64,000 bases of DNA, taken from NCBI RefSeq assembly GCF_003018255.1, contig NZ_CP027440.1. The stretch is one strand, 5' to 3'. Both the position numbers and the translations under genes were made by a program. Shown here one piece after another: positions 16,740 to 54,005 of this stretch; the first letter of the stretch is position 1, and the number at the start of each line of letters is the position of its first letter. A model generated the notes under the pieces. It made no database searches, was not told the DNA's origin, and worked only from the letters and a program-made list of their open reading frames with translations. The DNA is from Escherichia coli (GTDB lineage: Bacteria > Pseudomonadota > Gammaproteobacteria > Enterobacterales > Enterobacteriaceae).

Positions 16740-16816
16740 GGAGCGGTAGTTCAGTCGGTTAGAATACCTGCCTGTCACGCAGGGGGTCGCGGGTTCGAGT
16801 CCCGTCCGTTCCGCCA
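16740..16816 (+). tRNA. aspV: tRNA-Asp (anticodon GTC); left boundary of the accessory island
   Basis: Sequence identical to the tRNA-Asp at 8519-8595. Confidence 0.95.
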
Positions 16817-48017: not shown

Positions 48018-49306
48018 AGGGAAAGATCACGCAACGCTGCTTTTTTGTACTAATTAATTCGCATTTTATGTTTAAAAATTGAGATATTCCTCATTACCTA
48101 AAGCTGTTTTTTATTGCTTATACATGATCAAATACTCCTTACATAATTAAGGAGAACAAAATGGAACTTAAAAAATTGATGGAACATATTTCTATTATCC
48201 CCGATTACAGACAAGCCTGGAAAGTGGAACATAAATTGTCGGATATTCTACTGTTGACTATTTGTGCCGTTATTTCTGGTGCAGAAGGCTGGGAAGATAT
48301 AGAGGATTTTGGGGAAACACATCTCGATTTTTTGAAGCAATATGGTGATTTTGAAAATGGTATTCCTGTTCACGATACCATTGCCAGAGTTGTATCCTGT
48401 ATCAGTCCTGCAAAATTTCACGAGTGCTTTATTAACTGGATGCGTGACTGCCATTCTTCAGATGATAAAGACGTTATTGCAATTGATGGAAAAACGCTCC
48501 GGCATTCTTATGACAAGAGTCGCCGCAGGGGAGCGATTCATGTCATTAGTGCGTTCTCAACAATGCACAGTCTGGTCATCGGACAGATCAGGACGGATGA
48601 GAAATCCAATGAGATCACAGCTATCCATGAACTTCTTAACATGCTGGATATTAAAGGAAAAATCATCACAACTGATGCGATGGGTTGCCAGAAAGATATC
48701 GCAGAGAAGATACAAAAACAGGGCGGTGATTATTTATTCGCTGTAAAAGGAAATCAGGGGCGGCTTAATAAAGCCTTTGAGGAAAAATTCCCACTGAAAG
48801 AATTAAATAATCCAGAGCATGACAGTTACGCAATTAGTGAAAAAAGTCACGGCAGAGAAGAAATCCGTCTTCACATTGTTTGCGATGTCCCTGATGAACT
48901 TATTGATTTCATGTTTGAATGGAAAGGTCTGAAGAAATTATGCGTGGCAGTCTCCTTTCGGTCAATAATAGCAGAACAAAAGAAAGAGCCCGAAATGACG
49001 GTCAGATATTATATCAGTTCTGCTGATTTAACCGCAGAGAAGTTCGCCACAGCAATCCGAAACCACTGACACGTGGAGAATAAGCTGCACTGGCGTCTGG
49101 ACGTGGTAATGAATGAAGACGACTGCAAAATAAGAAGAGGAAACGCCGCAGAATTATTTTCAGGGATACGGCACATCGCTATTAATATTTTAACGAATGA
49201 TAATGTATTCAAGGCAGGGTTAAGACGTAAGATGCGAAAAGCAGCCATGGACAGAAACTACCTGGCGTCAGTCCTTGCTGGGAGCGGGCTTTCGTAATCT
49301 TTCCCT
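48018..49306 (+). mobile_element. ISAs1-family insertion sequence (H-repeat type), copy 1, 1289 bp
   Basis: Terminal inverted repeats AGGGAAAGATCACG...CGTAATCTTTCCCT; same length and ends as copies 2 and 3; no flanking direct repeat. Confidence 0.75.
48161..49297 (+). pseudogene. ISAs1-family transposase (H-repeat-associated protein) interrupted by an in-frame TGA at 49067-49069
   Basis: ORFs 48161-49069 and 49073-49297 together match the intact 378-aa copies; RNH-stop-HVENK here versus RNHWHVENK in copies 2 and 3 (TGG to TGA). Confidence 0.7.
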
Positions 49307-49349
49307 GGCGTCAGTCCTTGCAAGGAGCGGGCTTTCGTAATCTTTCCCT
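49307..49349 (+). repeat. Partial tandem duplication (about 43 bp) of the IS right terminus
   Basis: cgtcagtccttgcaaggagcgggctttcgtaatctttccct repeats the last about 40 bp of the IS immediately after copy 1. Confidence 0.6.
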
Positions 49350-49769
49350 GGGCGGTATATCATCCAGGACTCGATTGGGCTGAAGGGGGGATGGAATCTG
49401 TACCAATATCCGCTGAATCCAGTGCAACACGTTGATCCATTAGGGCTTAGTACTATGATAATAGGTAACGGCCCCGTTCCTGATAATCCTTTTGGGCATG
49501 CTGCGGCGGCAAATCGATATGGATTAATGAGTTCGGGAACTGGGGATGAGATGGGAGCCTCTGTCTCTGATTATTTTAAAAAGATGCAACCCCGCAGAGA
49601 TACCTGGATTTGGATAATAGATACAACAGATGAAGAAGAACAATGTATGATGAATAAGGCAATAGACCTTAATAAAAAACTAAAAACTATTAACCTCGGG
49701 CCTCTTCCTGTTTTAAATAATTGTTTTAGCCGAACGAACATGATTTTTGAGGCGTGCGGGTTTAACAAC
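49350..49769 (+). pseudogene. Orphan rhs 3' fragment (core-end motif plus C-terminal toxin domain), lacking a 5' region and interrupted by IS copy 2
   Basis: In-frame translation [33 protein letters not shown] then toxin domain (ORF 49422-49805) running into the IS at 49770; homologous to the main rhs core end. Confidence 0.6.
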
Positions 49770-51058
49770 AGGGAAAGATCACGTAACGCTGCTTTTTTGT
49801 ACTAAATAATTCGCATTTTATGTTTAAAAATTGAGATATTCCTCATTACCTAAAGCTGTTTTTTATTGCTTATACATGATCAAATACTCCTTACATAATT
49901 AAGGAGAACAAAATGAAACTTAAAAAATTGATGGAACATATTTCTATTATCCCCGATTACAGACAAGCCTGGAAAGTGGAACATAAATTGTCGGATATTC
50001 TACTGTTGACTATTTGTGCCGTTATTTCTGGTGCAGAAGGCTGGGAAGATATAGAGGATTTTGGGGAAACACATCTCGATTTTTTAAAACAATATGGTGA
50101 TTTTGAAAATGGTATTCCTGTTCACGATACCATCGCCAGAGTTGTATCCTGTATCAGTCCTTCAAAATTTCACGAGTGCTTTATTAACTGGATGCGAGAT
50201 TGCCATACTTCAGATGATAAAGACGTTATTGCAATCGATGGAAAAACACTCCGGCATTCTTATGACAGGAGTCGCCGCAGGGGAGCGATTCATGTCATTA
50301 GTGCGTTCTCAACAATGCACAGTCTGGTCATCGGACAGATCAGGACGGATGAGAAATCTAATGAGATTACAGCTATCCCAGAACTTCTTAACATGCTGGA
50401 TATTAAAGGAAAAATCATCACAACTGATGCGATGGGTTGCCAGAAAGATATTGCAGAGAAGATACAAAAACAGGGCGGTGATTATTTATTCGCTGTAAAA
50501 GGAAATCAGGGGCGGCTTAATAAAGCCTTTGAGGAAAAATTCCCACTGAAAGAATTAAATAATCCAGAGCATGACAGTTACGCAATTAGTGAAAAAAGTC
50601 ACGGCAGAGAAGAAATCCGTCTTCACATTGTTTGCGATGTCCCTGATGAACTTATTGATTTCATGTTTGAATGGAAAGGTCTGAAGAAATTATGCGTGGC
50701 AGTCTCCTTTCGGTCAATAATAGCAGAACAAAAGAAAGAGCCCGAAATGACGGTCAGATATTATATCAGTTCTGCTGATTTAACCGCAGAGAAGTTCGCC
50801 ACAGCAATCCGAAACCACTGGCACGTGGAGAATAAGCTGCACTGGCGTCTGGACGTGGTAATGAATGAAGACGACTGCAAAATAAGAAGAGGAAACGCCG
50901 CAGAATTATTTTCAGGGATACGGCACATCGCTATTAATATTTTAACGAATGATAAGGTATTCAAGGCAGGGTTAAGACGTAAGATGCGAAAAGCAGCCAT
51001 GGACAGAAACTACCTGGCGTCAGTCCTTGCAGGGAGCGGGCTTTCGTAATCTTTCCCT
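49770..51058 (+). mobile_element. ISAs1-family insertion sequence (H-repeat type), copy 2, 1289 bp, flanked by a 12-bp direct repeat
   Basis: Same inverted repeats as copy 1; GGGTTTAACAAC present at 49758-49769 and 51059-51070. Confidence 0.8.
49913..51049 (+). CDS. ISAs1-family transposase (H-repeat-associated protein), intact
   Basis: 378-aa ORF ([25 protein letters not shown]...); about 98% identical to the copy 3 protein. Confidence 0.8.
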
Positions 51059-51196
51059 GGGTTTAACAACCCCTCTATGAATACAAATGCGCCTATAAGC
51101 CTACAAGTGCTCGGTGAGCTTTATGGATATCAAAGATATATTATGCCTAAAGGTCCTTTCACTGGATTCCCATTTGAATTTCAAGAGGTAAAGTAA
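51059..51196 (+). pseudogene. 3' tail of the orphan rhs C-terminal toxin gene displaced by the IS copy 2 insertion
   Basis: Continues the upstream frame exactly after one copy of the direct repeat: GFNNPSMNTNAPISLQVLGELYGYQRYIMPKGPFTGFPFEFQEVK-stop, with stop TAA abutting the next ATG. Confidence 0.55.
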
Positions 51197-51595
51197 ATGG
51201 AAATGCTTGGGAAGATATTAGTGATAATTATTTCCATGATAATTATATCTTGTGATTATTATAATGCTGGCATGGACTATCAAGATAATATAGCCCTCGA
51301 GCAAGTCGTAACATGGGATTCTGATAATATATTCACACCTAATATCTTTGAACATAATGGAAGATGTTTTATGAAGAAAAATGAAACATGGATGTTATTA
51401 AATGGAGATGCAACACCAAACATTAGAACAATGAGCAATAAGAAAATAGAATGCCTGGAGAAGAGTGAAGTAGAATGGGCTAGTAGGGTTTGCGACAGTA
51501 TCACAGACAAGGAAAGGGAAAATCTGAAGGCATTAATATGTAGCAAACCAGCTAAATCAGTTAATACAGGCAAAAGACCAGCGTTAGGATATTGA
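51197..51595 (+). CDS. Putative immunity protein for the orphan rhs C-terminal toxin
   Basis: 132-aa ORF starting at the toxin stop (TAAATG); hydrophobic N-terminus; AT-rich, typical of rhs immunity genes. Confidence 0.45.
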   Translation: MEMLGKILVIIISMIIISCDYYNAGMDYQDNIALEQVVTWDSDNIFTPNIFEHNGRCFMKKNETWMLLNGDATPNIRTMSNKKIECLEKSEVEWASRVCDSITDKERENLKALICSKPAKSVNTGKRPALGY

Positions 51596-51639: not shown

Positions 51640-51732
51640 AGAGCAACTGCTCCGCCATCCGGGCTAGCAGTATGACGACGAATCCGAACTGCACTACAAC
51701 TGGCACCGGTACTACAATCCGGGACAGGGACT
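51640..51732 (+). pseudogene. Degenerate rhs core-end remnant truncated by IS copy 3
   Basis: actgcactacaactggcaccggtactacaatccgggacaggg is about 75% identical to the main rhs core 3' region around 46916-46960 and stops at the IS left end. Confidence 0.4.
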
Positions 51733-53021
51733 AGGGAAAGATCACGCAACGCTGCTTTTTTGTACTAAATAATTCGCATTTTATGTTTAAAAATTGAGAT
51801 ATTCCTCATTACCTGAAGCTGTTTTTTATTGCTTATACATGATCAAATACTCCTTACATAATTAAGGAGAACAAAATGGAACTTAAAAAATTGATGGAGC
51901 ATATTTCTATTATCCCCGATTACAGACAAGCCTGGAAAGTGGAACATAAATTGTCGGATATTCTACTGTTGACTATTTGTGCCGTTATTTCTGGTGCAGA
52001 AGGCTGGGAAGATATAGAGGATTTTGGGGAAACACATCTCGATTTTTTGAAGCAATATGGTGATTTTGAAAATGGTATTCCTGTTCACGATACCATTGCC
52101 AGAGTTGTATCCTGTATCAGTCCTGCAAAATTTCACGAGTGCTTTATTAACTGGATGCGTGACTGCCATTCTTCAGATGATAAAGACGTTATTGCAATTG
52201 ATGGAAAAACGCTCCGGCATTCTTATGACAAGAGTCGCCGCAGGGGAGCGATTCATGTCATTAGTGCGTTCTCAACAATGCACAGTCTGGTCATCGGACA
52301 GATCAGGACGGATGAGAAATCCAATGAGATCACAGCTATCCATGAACTTCTTAACATGTTGGATATTAAAGGAAAAATTATCACAACTGATGCGATGGGT
52401 TGCCAGAAAGATATCGCAGAGAAGATACAAAAACAGGGCGGTGATTATTTATTCGCTGTAAAAGGAAATCAGGGGCGGCTTAATAAAGCCTTTGAGGAAA
52501 AATTCCCACTGAAAGAATTAAATAATCCAGAGCATGACAGTTACGCAATTAGTGAAAAGAGTCACGGCAGAGAAGAAATCCGTCTTCACATTGTTTGCGA
52601 TGTCCCTGATGAACTTATTGATTTCATGTTTGAATGGAAAGGTCTGAAGAAATTATGCGTGGCAGTCTCCTTTCGGTCAATAATAGCAGAACAAAAGAAA
52701 GAGCCAGAAATGACGGTCAGATATTATATCAGTTCTGCTGATTTAACCGCAGAGAAGTTCGCCACAGCAATCCGAAACCACTGGCACGTGGAGAATAAGC
52801 TGCACTGGCGTCTGGACGTGGTAATGAATGAAGACGACTGCAAAATAAGAAGAGGAAATGCAGCAGAATTATTTTCAGGGATACGGCACATCGCTATTAA
52901 TATTTTAACGAATGATAATGTATTCAAGGCAGGGTTAAGACGTAAGATGCGAAAAGCAGCCATGGACAGAAACTACCTGGCGTCAGTCCTTGCTGGGAGC
53001 GGGCTTTCGTAATCTTTCCCT
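51733..53021 (+). mobile_element. ISAs1-family insertion sequence (H-repeat type), copy 3, 1289 bp
   Basis: Same inverted repeats; followed by a partial (about 27 bp) duplicate of the right terminus; no flanking direct repeat. Confidence 0.75.
51876..53012 (+). CDS. ISAs1-family transposase (H-repeat-associated protein), intact
   Basis: 378-aa ORF, near-identical to copy 1 but without the premature stop. Confidence 0.8.
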
Positions 53022-53081
53022 GGGGGAGCGGGCTTTCGTAGTCTTACCCTGACTCTCCCCAGCCCTAAACACAACCCCCAC

Positions 53082-53852
53082 TCACCACAACCTAAACTCA
53101 TCCGCATCCCGCCATGCCGGAAACTTTTCTCTATATTCCCGCAATGCCATCATCGACAGCTCCGCATCAATGCGCGTTGCCTGATGCGCGTCGGCAGTAG
53201 CGATAATCTCGCCTTGCGGATTAATCACCCGGCTGTCACCGCGATAATGGCAGCCGTTGCCATCGCTGCCGACGCGATTGCATCCCGCCACATACGCTTG
53301 ATTCTCAATCGCGCGGGCTGTCAGCAATGCCTGCCAGTGCAGAGAGCGCGGAGCAGGCCAGTTGGCGACGTACAGGGCGAGGTCATAATCGTTGAGATTG
53401 CGCGACCACACCGGAAAACGTAAGTCGTAGCACACCAGCGGCAAAATACGCCAGCCGCGCCATTCCACAATCACTCGCTCATTGCCCGCTTTATAATGCA
53501 GATGCTCATCTGCCATGCGGAACAGATGACGCTTATCATAAAAATGTACCGTGCCGCCCGGCTCAACCAGCAAAAAGCGGTTAACCGAACCAGACTCCGT
53601 TTGTAATGCAACACTGCCTGCAATCAGCGCATTGCACTGCTGCGCTTTAGCGGTCATCCAGTTCACTACGTCATCTTGTGCTAGCGACGAAGCTGCCGCT
53701 TCCATGGCAAAGCCGCTGGTAAACATCTCCGGTAGAACGATCACATCGCGCCCGGTAATACCTTCCAGTTGACGATCAAAATGGCGCAGGTTGGCAGGAC
53801 CATCCATCCACACCAGTGGTTGCTGCAAAAGCGTAATCTTCAAACCAGGCAC
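53082..53852 (-). CDS. yafV: Nitrilase-superfamily amidase (omega-amidase, YafV type)
   Basis: ORF 53082-53861 trimmed to GTG 53852 with AAGGAG RBS; carbon-nitrogen hydrolase motifs (VLPEMF, CYDLRFP). Confidence 0.85.
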   Translation of the reverse strand: MPGLKITLLQQPLVWMDGPANLRHFDRQLEGITGRDVIVLPEMFTSGFAMEAAASSLAQDDVVNWMTAKAQQCNALIAGSVALQTESGSVNRFLLVEPGGTVHFYDKRHLFRMADEHLHYKAGNERVIVEWRGWRILPLVCYDLRFPVWSRNLNDYDLALYVANWPAPRSLHWQALLTARAIENQAYVAGCNRVGSDGNGCHYRGDSRVINPQGEIIATADAHQATRIDAELSMMALREYREKFPAWRDADEFRLW

Positions 53853-54005
53853 GGTGTACAACTCCTTTATGCGAAGGGTTTTATAACTCTAACACCTTAT
53901 CAGGCAGTTGCCTTAGCGCAGAATAAATTGATAACAAATGCTGATATTGGAAATATCTGATTTGCAAATTATCGTGTTATCGCCAGGCTTTAGGGAGTTA
54001 ATCAC

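Follow-up and report, generated by a model that had tools for sequence, protein, structure and literature searches.

The window, which is the whole 64-kb stretch of E. coli DNA analyzed here (contig NZ_CP027440.1), was found to represent the T6SS-1 island between the aspV tRNA gene and yafV (Table 1). A full-length Hcp-VgrG-Rhs unit is followed downstream by an orphan Rhs toxin/immunity module, in agreement with the initial annotation. Three copies of ISEc1, formerly called the H-repeat (H-rpt), accompany the module, the middle one (copy 2) being located inside the toxin reading frame. All of the genes are co-oriented, the immunity gene and the transposase being on the same strand. The transposase of copy 1 is inactivated by a TGG to TGA change at 49067-49069. 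The presence of three near-identical 1.3-kb repeats inside 5 kb makes the region hard to assemble.

Table 1. Features of the Rhs locus, with positions given in the 64-kb window.
Feature	Position	Strand	Remarks
Hcp	40376-40894		Part of the delivery context
VgrG	41104-43212		Part of the delivery context
Main full-length Rhs, 1,402 aa	43279-47487	+	Delivery context; different C-terminal toxin
Lipoprotein-like gene downstream of main Rhs	47499-47894	+	
ISEc1 copy 1	48017-49307	+	Without target-site duplication; parts the orphan from any Rhs core
Tandem duplicate of copy 1 right end, 43 bp	49304-49346	+	Whole copy 1 block, 48017-49350
Rhs core 3' end (33 residues, starting (G))	49351-49448	+	Immediately follows the right end of IS copy 1
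Toxin residues 1-107 (...NNCFSRTN...ACGFNN)	49449-49768	+	Upstream of IS; holds conserved His17 and Cys92
Left target-site duplication copy, 10 bp, GGTTTAACAA	49759-49768	.	Inside 12-nt identity 49758-49769
ISEc1 / H-rpt copy 2, ISAs1 family, 1,291 bp	49769-51059	+	By end definition, transposase profile and RefSeq annotation of the JNE counterpart
Right target-site duplication copy, 10 bp, GGTTTAACAA	51060-51069	.	Inside 12-nt identity 51059-51070
Toxin residues 108-148 (PSMNTNAPISLQVLGELYGYQRYIMPKGPFTGFPFEFQEVK) and TAA stop	51071-51196	+	Modelled helix 115-125, strand 126-132
Putative immunity gene, intact, 132 aa	51197-51595	+	
Remnant of another Rhs core end (..YDDESELHYNWHRYYNPGQG)	51640-51731	+	Abuts IS copy 3
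ISEc1 copy 3	51732-53022	+	Without target-site duplication; transposase intact, 51876-53012
Degenerate extra right-end remnant after copy 3	53024-53051		

The first part of the orphan module is a partial core end in which the PxxxxDPxGL motif is present, and the module has neither an N-terminal region nor a start codon. The core remnant could be aligned to the last 33-34 positions only of RHS_core / TIGR03696 (32.7 bits; cutoff 32.5), and over 71 nt it shares 80% identity with the main rhs at 46954-47024. Homologous loci are annotated likewise in RefSeq, where the module lies downstream of a full-length rhs with hcp-vgrG. Because IS copy 1, joined at ...Q-G|RYI, cuts off the Rhs core, the PAAR and the shell, the toxin was already orphaned and undeliverable before the insertion of copy 2. 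Orphan Rhs toxin/immunity modules are reportedly covered in work by Koskiniemi et al. from 2014. They have also been referred to as 'C-terminal tips' or dissociated fragments (Jackson et al. 2009, PMC2935791). The present module resembles the known ones in its partial core end with DPxGL, its variable toxin, its immunity gene and its position downstream of an hcp/vgrG-linked rhs, and also in that the same tip can be seen on a full Rhs in other strains. It differs from them in that only about 100 nt of core homology are left, since IS copy 1 abuts the module, and in that an IS also interrupts the toxin, so that recombining with the main rhs would give a broken toxin unless the IS were lost.

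A 12-nt repeat, GGGTTTAACAAC, could be located at 49758-49769 and 51059-51070 of the window, and each of its copies adjoins one end of copy 2, as had been claimed. The pair is unique, as no third copy was present elsewhere in the 64-kb window on either strand with up to one mismatch. A shuffle control with one mismatch permitted gave a mean of 0.38 matches to the 12-mer anywhere in the 64 kb, and the chance of a given 12-mer recurring at one set position is approximately 4^-12 (6e-8). The 12-mer does not flank copies 1 and 3, neither of which has any direct repeat. The initial annotation had placed the IS at 49770-51058 with a 12-bp duplication; the duplication proved real, but its length and the limits of the element had to be revised. 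Because ISEc1 ends elsewhere read CAGGG...CCCTG, which was confirmed on ISEc1 copies with other flanks, copy 2 is delimited as 49769-51059 with a 10-bp duplication, and the family end definition indicates that the true target duplication is GGTTTAACAA and not the 12 bp. The extra G and C of the 12-nt match are terminal IS bases that coincide with adjacent target bases, and the 10-bp and 12-bp parsings give an identical excision product.

The transposase ORF of copy 2 is intact (49913-51049, 378 aa) and matched NF033564 (transpos_ISAs1) with 416 bits (cutoff 70) and E = 9e-125 over 314/314 profile positions. The imperfect terminal inverted repeats read CAGGGAAAGATCACG... / ...CGTAATCTTTCCCTG, and the terminal arms of 25 nt are 80% complementary. 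The size (1.2-1.5 kb) and the 14-22-bp terminal inverted repeats starting with CAGGG agree with the description of the ISAs1 family, in which a 10-bp direct repeat is the norm (PMC11946415). Copy 2 likewise has a 10-bp direct duplication together with a demonstrable empty site. A literature search on target duplications of ISEc1 returned a family-level statement only and nothing specific to ISEc1. In RefSeq, homologous copies carry the label 'ISAs1-like element ISEc1 family transposase'. Similar to the ISEc1/H-rpt of E. coli Rhs elements, copy 2 has a length of 1,291 bp, CAGGG-type ends and a single 378-aa DDE transposase, and, like H-rpt, it sits inside an Rhs locus and is co-oriented with rhs. 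Unlike the classic H-rpt, which shows no target duplications, and unlike copies 1 and 3 and those at the rhsB locus and the GF43 PAAR locus, copy 2 duplicated 10 bp.

In silico excision of 49770-51070 produced one open frame with 0 internal stops, in which the Rhs core end is followed by the DPLGL motif and a toxin domain of 148 aa, the insertion point being located at codon 107/108 of this domain. Removal of the IS and one repeat was thus found to restore a complete orphan toxin domain, as predicted earlier. The toxin frame had been described as resuming after the second repeat and running to the immunity start, and this was verified, with the TAA stop at 51194-51196 standing directly next to the ATG (51197) of the 132-aa ORF.

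A search for the uninterrupted cassette, as the initial annotation had suggested, was conducted in 5,426 complete E. coli genomes, in which a cassette was counted at ≥80% of the 949-bp reconstruction; it was present in 543 of them. The reconstructed 949 bp matched elsewhere as a single ungapped alignment with up to 99.9% identity, and the empty site reads ...GCGTGCGGGTTTAACAACCCCTCT.... Besides the window strain, the filled site could be observed in only 2 of the 5,426 genomes, JNE23-011 and JNE112863, with the same architecture. The left toxin ORF, which continues into IS sequence in the window, is annotated in the JNE genomes as an incomplete 'RHS element protein'. DETEC-S792 carries the empty site in the same IS-orphan-immunity-IS-yafV layout. 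Compared with the window, its 420-bp left flank contains 1 mismatch, and the 1,485 bp past the insertion site contain 0. Copy 2 represents a textbook filled site, for which a sister strain provides the matching empty one. In GF43 the toxin forms the C-terminus of the only full-length T6SS Rhs (1,409 aa), the toxin domain of which is 100% identical to the reconstruction, and the immunity protein is identical too. Judged by its sequence, this Rhs with an uninterrupted toxin is evidently complete and functional. In PCN033 the toxin ends a second, frameshifted Rhs.

These comparisons also bear on the nature of the flanking repeat, which might be due to chance, to IS-IS recombination or to an assembly artefact instead of a target-site duplication. 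Copies 1 and 3 and the ISEc1 copies at two other loci are without target duplications and clearly rearranged; because the other copies examined lack them, clean duplications are not the rule for ISEc1, and the difficulty of assembling three such repeats within 5 kb points in the same direction. However, the probability of a 10-12-nt chance match exactly at the junctions is approximately 1e-6 to 6e-8, the joined flanks equal the sequence of 543 genomes to the base, and the same structure is present in two independent complete genomes. This explanation is effectively refuted by the empty-site match, and its probability is close to nil. The reverse course, with the IS-bearing allele as the ancestor and precise excision of the IS via its direct repeats as the source of the empty alleles, would be conceivable in principle: recombination of 10-12-bp repeats could remove the IS exactly, and the direction of change is not given by sequence alone. 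It is nevertheless highly improbable in view of 543 empty against 2 filled genomes, of an empty allele that is the coding sequence of the complete and evidently functional GF43 Rhs, and of a toxin family that is conserved far beyond E. coli without an IS.

The best explanation of the whole is, with high confidence, that ISEc1 transposed into an orphan Rhs toxin, generating a 10-bp duplication and sparing the immunity gene. Accounting for the locus in this way, one ISEc1 copy would have entered toxin codon 107/108 and duplicated the 10 bp GGTTTAACAA with no other rearrangement. The insertion would be a single ancestral event of a narrow lineage, and the empty site would be the ancestral state. 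Lacking its last 41 residues, with a core beta-strand of the model among them, the toxin domain is considered dead. The immunity gene, its Shine-Dalgarno sequence and its frame are untouched. The event had been described as a recent simple insertion. It can be regarded as simple; recency holds only in the sense that the insertion is lineage-restricted, and a gene-conversion patch appears to have been acquired since. The insertion is real and cleanly documented, yet ordinary, as IS insertion into orphan toxin modules is an already known kind of event.

Concerning the class of the disrupted toxin, the query itself gave 0 matches against Pfam. The domain belongs to a family of at least 353 cluster representatives, in which it is always C-terminal. 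Among 41 diverse family members, Cys92 was present in 100% and His17 in at least 90%, and the putative catalytic order of His then Cys suggests a circularly permuted arrangement; Pfam Lnb_N matches were obtained for 3 of these 41 relatives at E ≤ 0.001 and for 8 at E ≤ 0.1. The AlphaFold2 model of the toxin (pLDDT 91.8) has a papain-like NlpC/P60 fold, and its best structural matches were YiiX, 3kw0, RID acyltransferase and PLAAT, which are permuted and lipid-associated. Foldseek analysis on AFDB50 revealed Rhs C-termini together with DUF4105/Lnb_N proteins, the latter at E = 1e-11 to 1e-5. Conserved residues and modelled fold together place the toxin as a predicted permuted NlpC/P60 His-Cys hydrolase (Tox-Act1/DUF4105/TseH-like). 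Two distant relatives of the domain (P0083 and P0194) follow a Transglut_core2 gene, which is a non-toxin context.

Tox-Act1, which had no HMM match, was tied to DUF4105 and TseH by HHpred and shows periplasmic phospholipase activity; cells lysed by it stayed rod-shaped, lysophospholipids were produced, and phospholipase activity could likewise be demonstrated for TseH (PMC12994826). Likened by fold and description, the present toxin shares with Tox-Act1 (STox_15) and TseH (Nicastro et al. 2026, PMC12994826) a permuted His-then-Cys papain-like core, the lack of a direct Pfam match, the fusion to Rhs/T6SS carriers and a remote DUF4105/Lnb_N likeness. The spacing between His and Cys is 75 residues here compared to 108 in Tox-Act1 (H43/C151). 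By analogy, the toxin probably targets lipids in the periplasm, and it may attack acyl linkages, of phospholipids or lipoproteins, from the periplasmic side. Because the published Imm-Act1 is another type of immunity protein, this transfer of a lipid target goes by fold and clade only. The toxin could alternatively be a peptidoglycan amidase or endopeptidase, like the NlpC/P60 T6SS effectors Tae4 or Tse1, and not lipid-targeting. Its papain-like NlpC/P60 fold would agree with that, TseH and a Salmonella 'TseH-like' effector were first predicted as amidases (PMC10469887), and a periplasmic lipoprotein immunity protein is compatible with either target. A peptidoglycan target is nonetheless considered unlikely, given the permuted His-then-Cys order, the top structural matches to YiiX, 3kw0, RID acyltransferase, PLAAT and DUF4105/Lnb proteins, and the phospholipase data on TseH and on Tox-Act1, the latter with rod shape being kept on lysis (PMC12994826).

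The 132-aa ORF appears from its sequence and position to be the cognate immunity gene, a putative neutralizer of the toxin. Its product is identical to WP_000425544.1, which is encoded next to the full-length Rhs with the same toxin in GF43; an intact immunity gene beside a disrupted toxin, as the initial annotation had it, is thus supported. A GAGG Shine-Dalgarno sequence is located 8 nt upstream of the start codon, within the toxin 3' end, and the toxin-immunity adjacency is conserved in the 543 genomes, with a geometry of translational coupling. The protein carries a predicted lipoprotein signal with the lipobox IISC and Asp at +2, has one N-terminal hydrophobic segment, and matched no Pfam or NCBIfam family, DUF4229 included. 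As in the Tox-Act1 system, the immunity protein is thus predicted to be membrane- or periplasm-associated, whereas Imm-Act1 has two transmembrane helices and belongs to DUF4229 (PMC12994826, PMC10469887), unlike the 132-aa predicted lipoprotein found here. Considered by analogy, a lipoprotein immunity protein fits a putative periplasmic acyl-linkage target of the toxin.

No sigma-70-like site was predicted between the IS and the immunity start and no outward promoter at the IS right end, in a promoter scan that was at shuffle level (20 sites against 16.1 ± 3.8 expected). On the + strand, prediction gave no terminator-like site in the stretch from the transposase to the immunity gene. Because there is no such sigma-70-like site, we can only infer expression of the immunity gene; its transcription may depend on read-through out of the co-oriented transposase gene or from further upstream. 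The immunity protein may still protect against kin firing this toxin.

As the toxin was already undeliverable, being cut off by IS copy 1, the insertion is assumed to have been most likely selectively neutral. Selection for the insertion could be envisaged if transcription from the IS keeps the immunity gene expressed, or if a dead toxin avoids costly reactivation via the main rhs. Compatible with such an advantage are the co-orientation of IS and immunity gene with no predicted terminator between them, the perfect conservation of the immunity gene while the toxin is broken, and the persistence of the insertion, which is found in three strains and has had time to undergo gene conversion. However, the sister strain DETEC-S792 and hundreds of other genomes carry the intact orphan without apparent problem, and there is no evident toxin activity to suppress because the orphan toxin is missing a start codon, an Rhs shell and a signal peptide. 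Furthermore, no outward promoter could be detected at the IS right end, and with the insertion limited to 2 of 5,426 genomes nothing points to a sweep, all of which renders selection quite unlikely compared with neutrality.

The history of copy 2 has been obscured by gene conversion. Comparison of copy 2 with its neighbours, copies 1 and 3, showed 21-28 differing sites, and 44 sites separate the JNE copy 2 from the yhhI copy of the rhsB locus. ISEc1 occupies 11-14 places in the genomes of the window strain, the two JNE strains and DETEC-S792. Compared with the same insertion in the JNE strains, the window copy 2 shows 11 differing sites, which are clustered and look like a gene-conversion patch gained after the insertion. 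With the exception of the insertion itself, no best match to the JNE copy 2 reached 99% in any genome. Copies 1 and 3 and the yhhI copies (rhsB locus, DETEC-S792 and JNE112863) were rejected as donors, and a donor was not found because none of the compared ISEc1 copies is close (16-48 differences). ISEc1 copies appear to be mosaics made by gene conversion.

Transposition of H-rpt was stated as never observed (PMC3032704). The filled/empty pair described here is evidence that H-rpt/ISEc1 moves by ordinary transposition with a 10-bp duplication, which is absent from the older Rhs literature. One locus can be seen in three states, namely armed in GF43, orphaned with an intact toxin in DETEC-S792, and orphaned with an IS-split toxin in the window and the JNE strains; the series represents a stepwise decay of the T6SS Rhs arsenal towards immunity-only islands. 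A broader reading, which is possible but doubtful, is that ISEc1/H-rpt is now active in natural E. coli lineages and is a main sculptor of Rhs orphan arrays. If this were true, ISEc1 would make orphans by cutting C-terminal modules at or near the conserved core end ...CAG GGx (Q-G|RYI), and would then erode the toxin halves while immunity genes are spared. As a separate part of this reading, the cassette would combine a lipid-targeting, Tox-Act1-like toxin with an undescribed lipoprotein-type immunity protein. It was also considered whether copy 1, at its right junction, and copy 3, at its left, mark the two halves of one old insertion into the Rhs core; this was rejected because the junctions lie 3-4 bp apart on the core but have no shared 10-bp overlap. 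Strict targeting of the core CAGGGG by ISEc1 was likewise rejected, as other copies join elsewhere: the yhhI copy joins the Rhs core at another position (...PGSFTP|IS), and the GF43 ISEc1 copy joins a PAAR fragment.

The features of the locus are collected in the table, with gene names backed by the RefSeq annotation of near-identical loci. The 1.29-kb repeat, present as copies 1, 2 and 3, is the H-repeat (H-rpt) of the classical Rhs elements. The ORF of copy 2 matched the NCBIfam ISAs1 transposase equivalog with 416 bits (cutoff 70), and homologous copies in RefSeq are named 'ISAs1-like element ISEc1 family transposase'.

Positions of features at the Rhs locus, in window coordinates
Feature	Position	Strand	Remark
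rRNA operon, rrnH-type, and two tRNA-Asp genes			Start of the described order
tRNA-Asp gene (aspV position)	16740-16816		Boundary of the T6SS-1/Rhs island
T6SS gene cluster		-	After the rRNA and tRNA-Asp genes
Hcp	40376-40894	+	After the T6SS cluster
VgrG	41104-43212	+	
Main Rhs	43279-47487	+	1,402 aa
dsORF-e4	47499-47894		Downstream of main Rhs; lipoprotein-like signal LLCGC at its start
IS1 fragment	~47916-48014		Between dsORF-e4 and copy 1
1.29-kb repeat			Three co-oriented copies between main rhs and yafV
Copy 1	48017-49307		
Tandem duplication, 43 bp	49261-49303, 49304-49346		Right end of copy 1; units differ at 49322-49323
Copy 2	49769-51059		1,291 bp
ORF of copy 2	49913-51049		378 aa
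Immunity gene	51197-51595		
Vestigial Rhs core end	51640-51731		
Copy 3	51732-53022		
Second right-end remnant	53024-53051		After copy 3; degenerate; GGGAGCGGGCTTTCGTAGTCTTACCCTG
yafV	53082-53861	+	Other boundary of the island
ivy, fadE		+	End of the gene order
naRNA4 matches (Rfam)	60439-60516, 61175-61252		Downstream of the locus

The initial annotation described copy 2 as flanked by a 12-bp target-site duplication, and GGGTTTAACAAC was found at 49758-49769 and 51059-51070, each directly against an end of copy 2, with no further site on either strand of the 64 kb at up to one mismatch. Copies 1 and 3 had no direct repeats around them, and their flanks were unrelated. The duplication was upheld, but its length was not. 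ISEc1 copies with other flanking bases, in DETEC-S792 (rhsB locus) and in strain GF43 (beside a PAAR fragment), run from CAGGG to CCCTG; because the element has these ends, the extent of copy 2 is that in the table and only the 10-bp GGTTTAACAA is truly duplicated target. The 12-mer owes its outer G and C to the terminal IS bases, by chance equal to the adjoining target bases. The length agrees with the ISAs1 family, for which a 10-bp direct repeat and inverted repeats of 14-22 bp starting CAGGG are reported (PMC11946415). Target duplications were absent from the four other ISEc1 copies examined (1, 3, rhsB locus and GF43), and copy 2 is thus a comparatively rare, clean filled site. In-silico deletion of 49770-51070 restored, as had been predicted, one frame without stops, consisting of (G) plus 32 residues and then 148 residues; its TAA (51194-51196) is followed at the next base by the ATG (51197) of a 132-aa ORF.

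A search of 5,426 complete E. coli genomes for the reconstructed 949-bp cassette found 80% or more of its length in 543, the best matches being single-piece with up to 99.9% identity. The uninterrupted form could be seen in DETEC-S792, where the order Hcp, VgrG, Rhs, dsORF-e4, IS1 remnant, ISEc1, orphan, immunity, ISEc1, yafV gives the architecture of the window with the middle IS missing. Across the insertion site this strain reads ...GCGTGCGGGTTTAACAACCCCTCT... with a single repeat copy. Against the window, one of 420 bases left of the site is changed and none of the next 1,485 to the right, in keeping with the simple insertion proposed at first. A collinear insertion was found in only two of the 5,426 genomes, the human isolates JNE23-011 and JNE112863 from Japan (JNE strains), which keep the entire window architecture, including the nonsense mutation of copy 1. 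The empty site and the narrow distribution of the filled site indicate that the IS inserted once, in a narrow lineage, the empty site being the ancestral state. According to the E. coli W genome paper, H-rpt transposition has not been observed (PMC3032704), and a natural filled/empty pair for a supposedly immobile element is of modest extra value.

Copy 2 of the window differs from that of the JNE strains at 11 sites, all within 50596-50791, and at every one of them it agrees with the neighbouring copies 1 and 3. Judged from these comparisons, 50596-50791 resembles a patch, about 200 bp or longer, of gene conversion between IS copies. Relative to copies 1 and 3, copy 2 has 21-28 differing sites, and the JNE copy 2 has 16 differences from the yhhI copy of DETEC-S792 and 44 from that of JNE112863. 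The insertion itself in the JNE strains aside, every genome's closest match to JNE copy 2 stayed below 99%, and no donor emerged. Given this history, the insertion first called recent is lineage-restricted with unaltered flanks, but not brand new.

The broken frame starts directly where copy 1 ends on its right side, in the final Rhs core codons (...Q-G/RYIIQD...DPLGL), and its match to the RHS_core and Rhs_assc_core models covers no more than their last 33-34 positions. The module lacks a start codon, PAAR and Rhs shell and is therefore an orphan. In GF43, the Hcp-VgrG-Rhs locus is the same and its sole full-length Rhs (1,409 aa) carries this C-terminus; compared with the reconstruction, the toxin domain is 100% identical and the core motif has one Pro-to-Ser change. 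Next after this Rhs lies an identical 132-aa protein, WP_000425544.1. In strain PCN033, the toxin forms the end of a second Rhs, which is frameshifted. The orphan module follows the C-terminal displacement pattern published for rhs (PMC2935791): the window lineage gained a new main C-terminus, and the old toxin/immunity pair stayed as a vestige. This refines the initial reading in that the toxin was already orphaned before the insertion, and therefore undeliverable before copy 2 arrived. Copy 2 cost the toxin residues 108-148, which in the structural model contribute a helix and a core beta-strand. Mechanistically, this is ordinary IS transposition into a toxin module already in decay, and the remnant left is immunity-only.

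Pfam, NCBIfam and PDB sequence searches with the toxin returned nothing past the core end. At least 353 relatives of the toxin domain emerged when 1.84 billion representatives were searched with a profile; in the best matches retrieved, the domain lies at the very C-terminal end, often of proteins that are very long. Alignment of 41 diverse members showed N13, G16, G25, G30, R50 and C92 to be invariant and H17 nearly so, with the family motifs NPFGH...AxA and (D/N)NC. The AlphaFold2 model was confident (pLDDT 91.8, pTM 0.86), and its AFDB50 matches were Rhs C-termini and DUF4105/'Lnb N-terminal periplasmic domain' proteins; a few family members matched Pfam Lnb_N directly. Within the NlpC/P60 superfamily, the toxin belongs to the permuted branch (His before Cys). 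The Tox-Act1 (STox_15) clade, described in 2026, gives no HMM hit, is linked by HHpred to DUF4105 and TseH, and includes E. coli members fused to Rhs; toxicity of the clade is confined to the periplasm, and its members have phospholipase activity on PG and PE and rely on a catalytic His and Cys (PMC12994826). The published description of this clade fits the window toxin, which is a probable member. Distant standalone relatives of about 200 aa (P0194, P0083; loci L007-L010) lie directly after a Transglut_core2 gene, and one adjoins prfA/prmC-type housekeeping genes; since this context is not a toxin one, the fold family has non-toxin members.

The immunity gene was indeed intact beside the disrupted toxin, and its protein is identical to the partner of the armed GF43 Rhs. 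Its ATG abuts the toxin stop, with GAGG 8 nt upstream. The lipobox and Lol-avoidance rules are the general basis for a lipoprotein reading, and the N-terminus, MEMLGKILVIIISMIIISC followed by D, reads as a putative lipoprotein signal with Asp at +2, which would fit a periplasm-facing target. Imm-Act1 has two transmembrane helices of the DUF4229 type, whereas the immunity protein here has a predicted lipoprotein signal; no Pfam or NCBIfam family was found for it. The cassette would pair a permuted NlpC/P60 toxin resembling Tox-Act1 with an immunity partner of the lipoprotein type, which is also of modest extra value. No promoter-like site was found between copy 2 and the immunity ATG, and the site counts of the scan were those expected of shuffled sequence. 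No plus-strand terminator-like site was predicted between the co-oriented transposase and the immunity gene, which makes transcriptional read-through plausible, and we infer that the gene could be expressed from the transposase in this way.

The 43-bp duplication is specific to the window strain, as it is missing from JNE23-011, JNE112863 and DETEC-S792. A TGG>TGA change at 49067-49069 breaks the copy 1 transposase into 302-aa and 74-aa parts; it is also present in both JNE genomes, whose annotation of the gene reads 'internal stop'. The vestigial Rhs core end (..NWHRYYNPGQG) halts at the left end of copy 3, within 3-4 bp of the core position (CAG GGx / CGG TAT) where the orphan starts (49351-49360). 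The core sequence at the orphan/copy 1 junction, CAGGGG, resembles the IS terminus CAGGG. The copy 1/orphan and vestige/copy 3 core junctions share no 10-bp overlap, and another ISEc1 copy meets an Rhs core at a different position; the CAGGGG core junctions may be coincidence or a weak preference. At its left terminus (51732), copy 3 has T and not C (TAGGG), and PCN033 has a longer right-end remnant at the same place as the one following copy 3. In E. coli K-12, the H-repeat pseudogene yafF lies beside yafV and would be the remnant of copy 3.

Upstream of the orphan, the window and the JNE strains differ by 107 mismatches, nearly all in the 3' half of the main rhs core (within 44750-47000, peaking at 46500-47000), with few, scattered ones in the rest of the shared region. 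This distribution suggests a recombination patch in the main rhs core at 44750-47000. The main Rhs C-terminal domain (region 47010-47894) had no Pfam match and is glycine-rich (...GIGGGINAA...VGGGVGGH). The two naRNA4 matches correspond to a REP-derived nucleoid-associated RNA.
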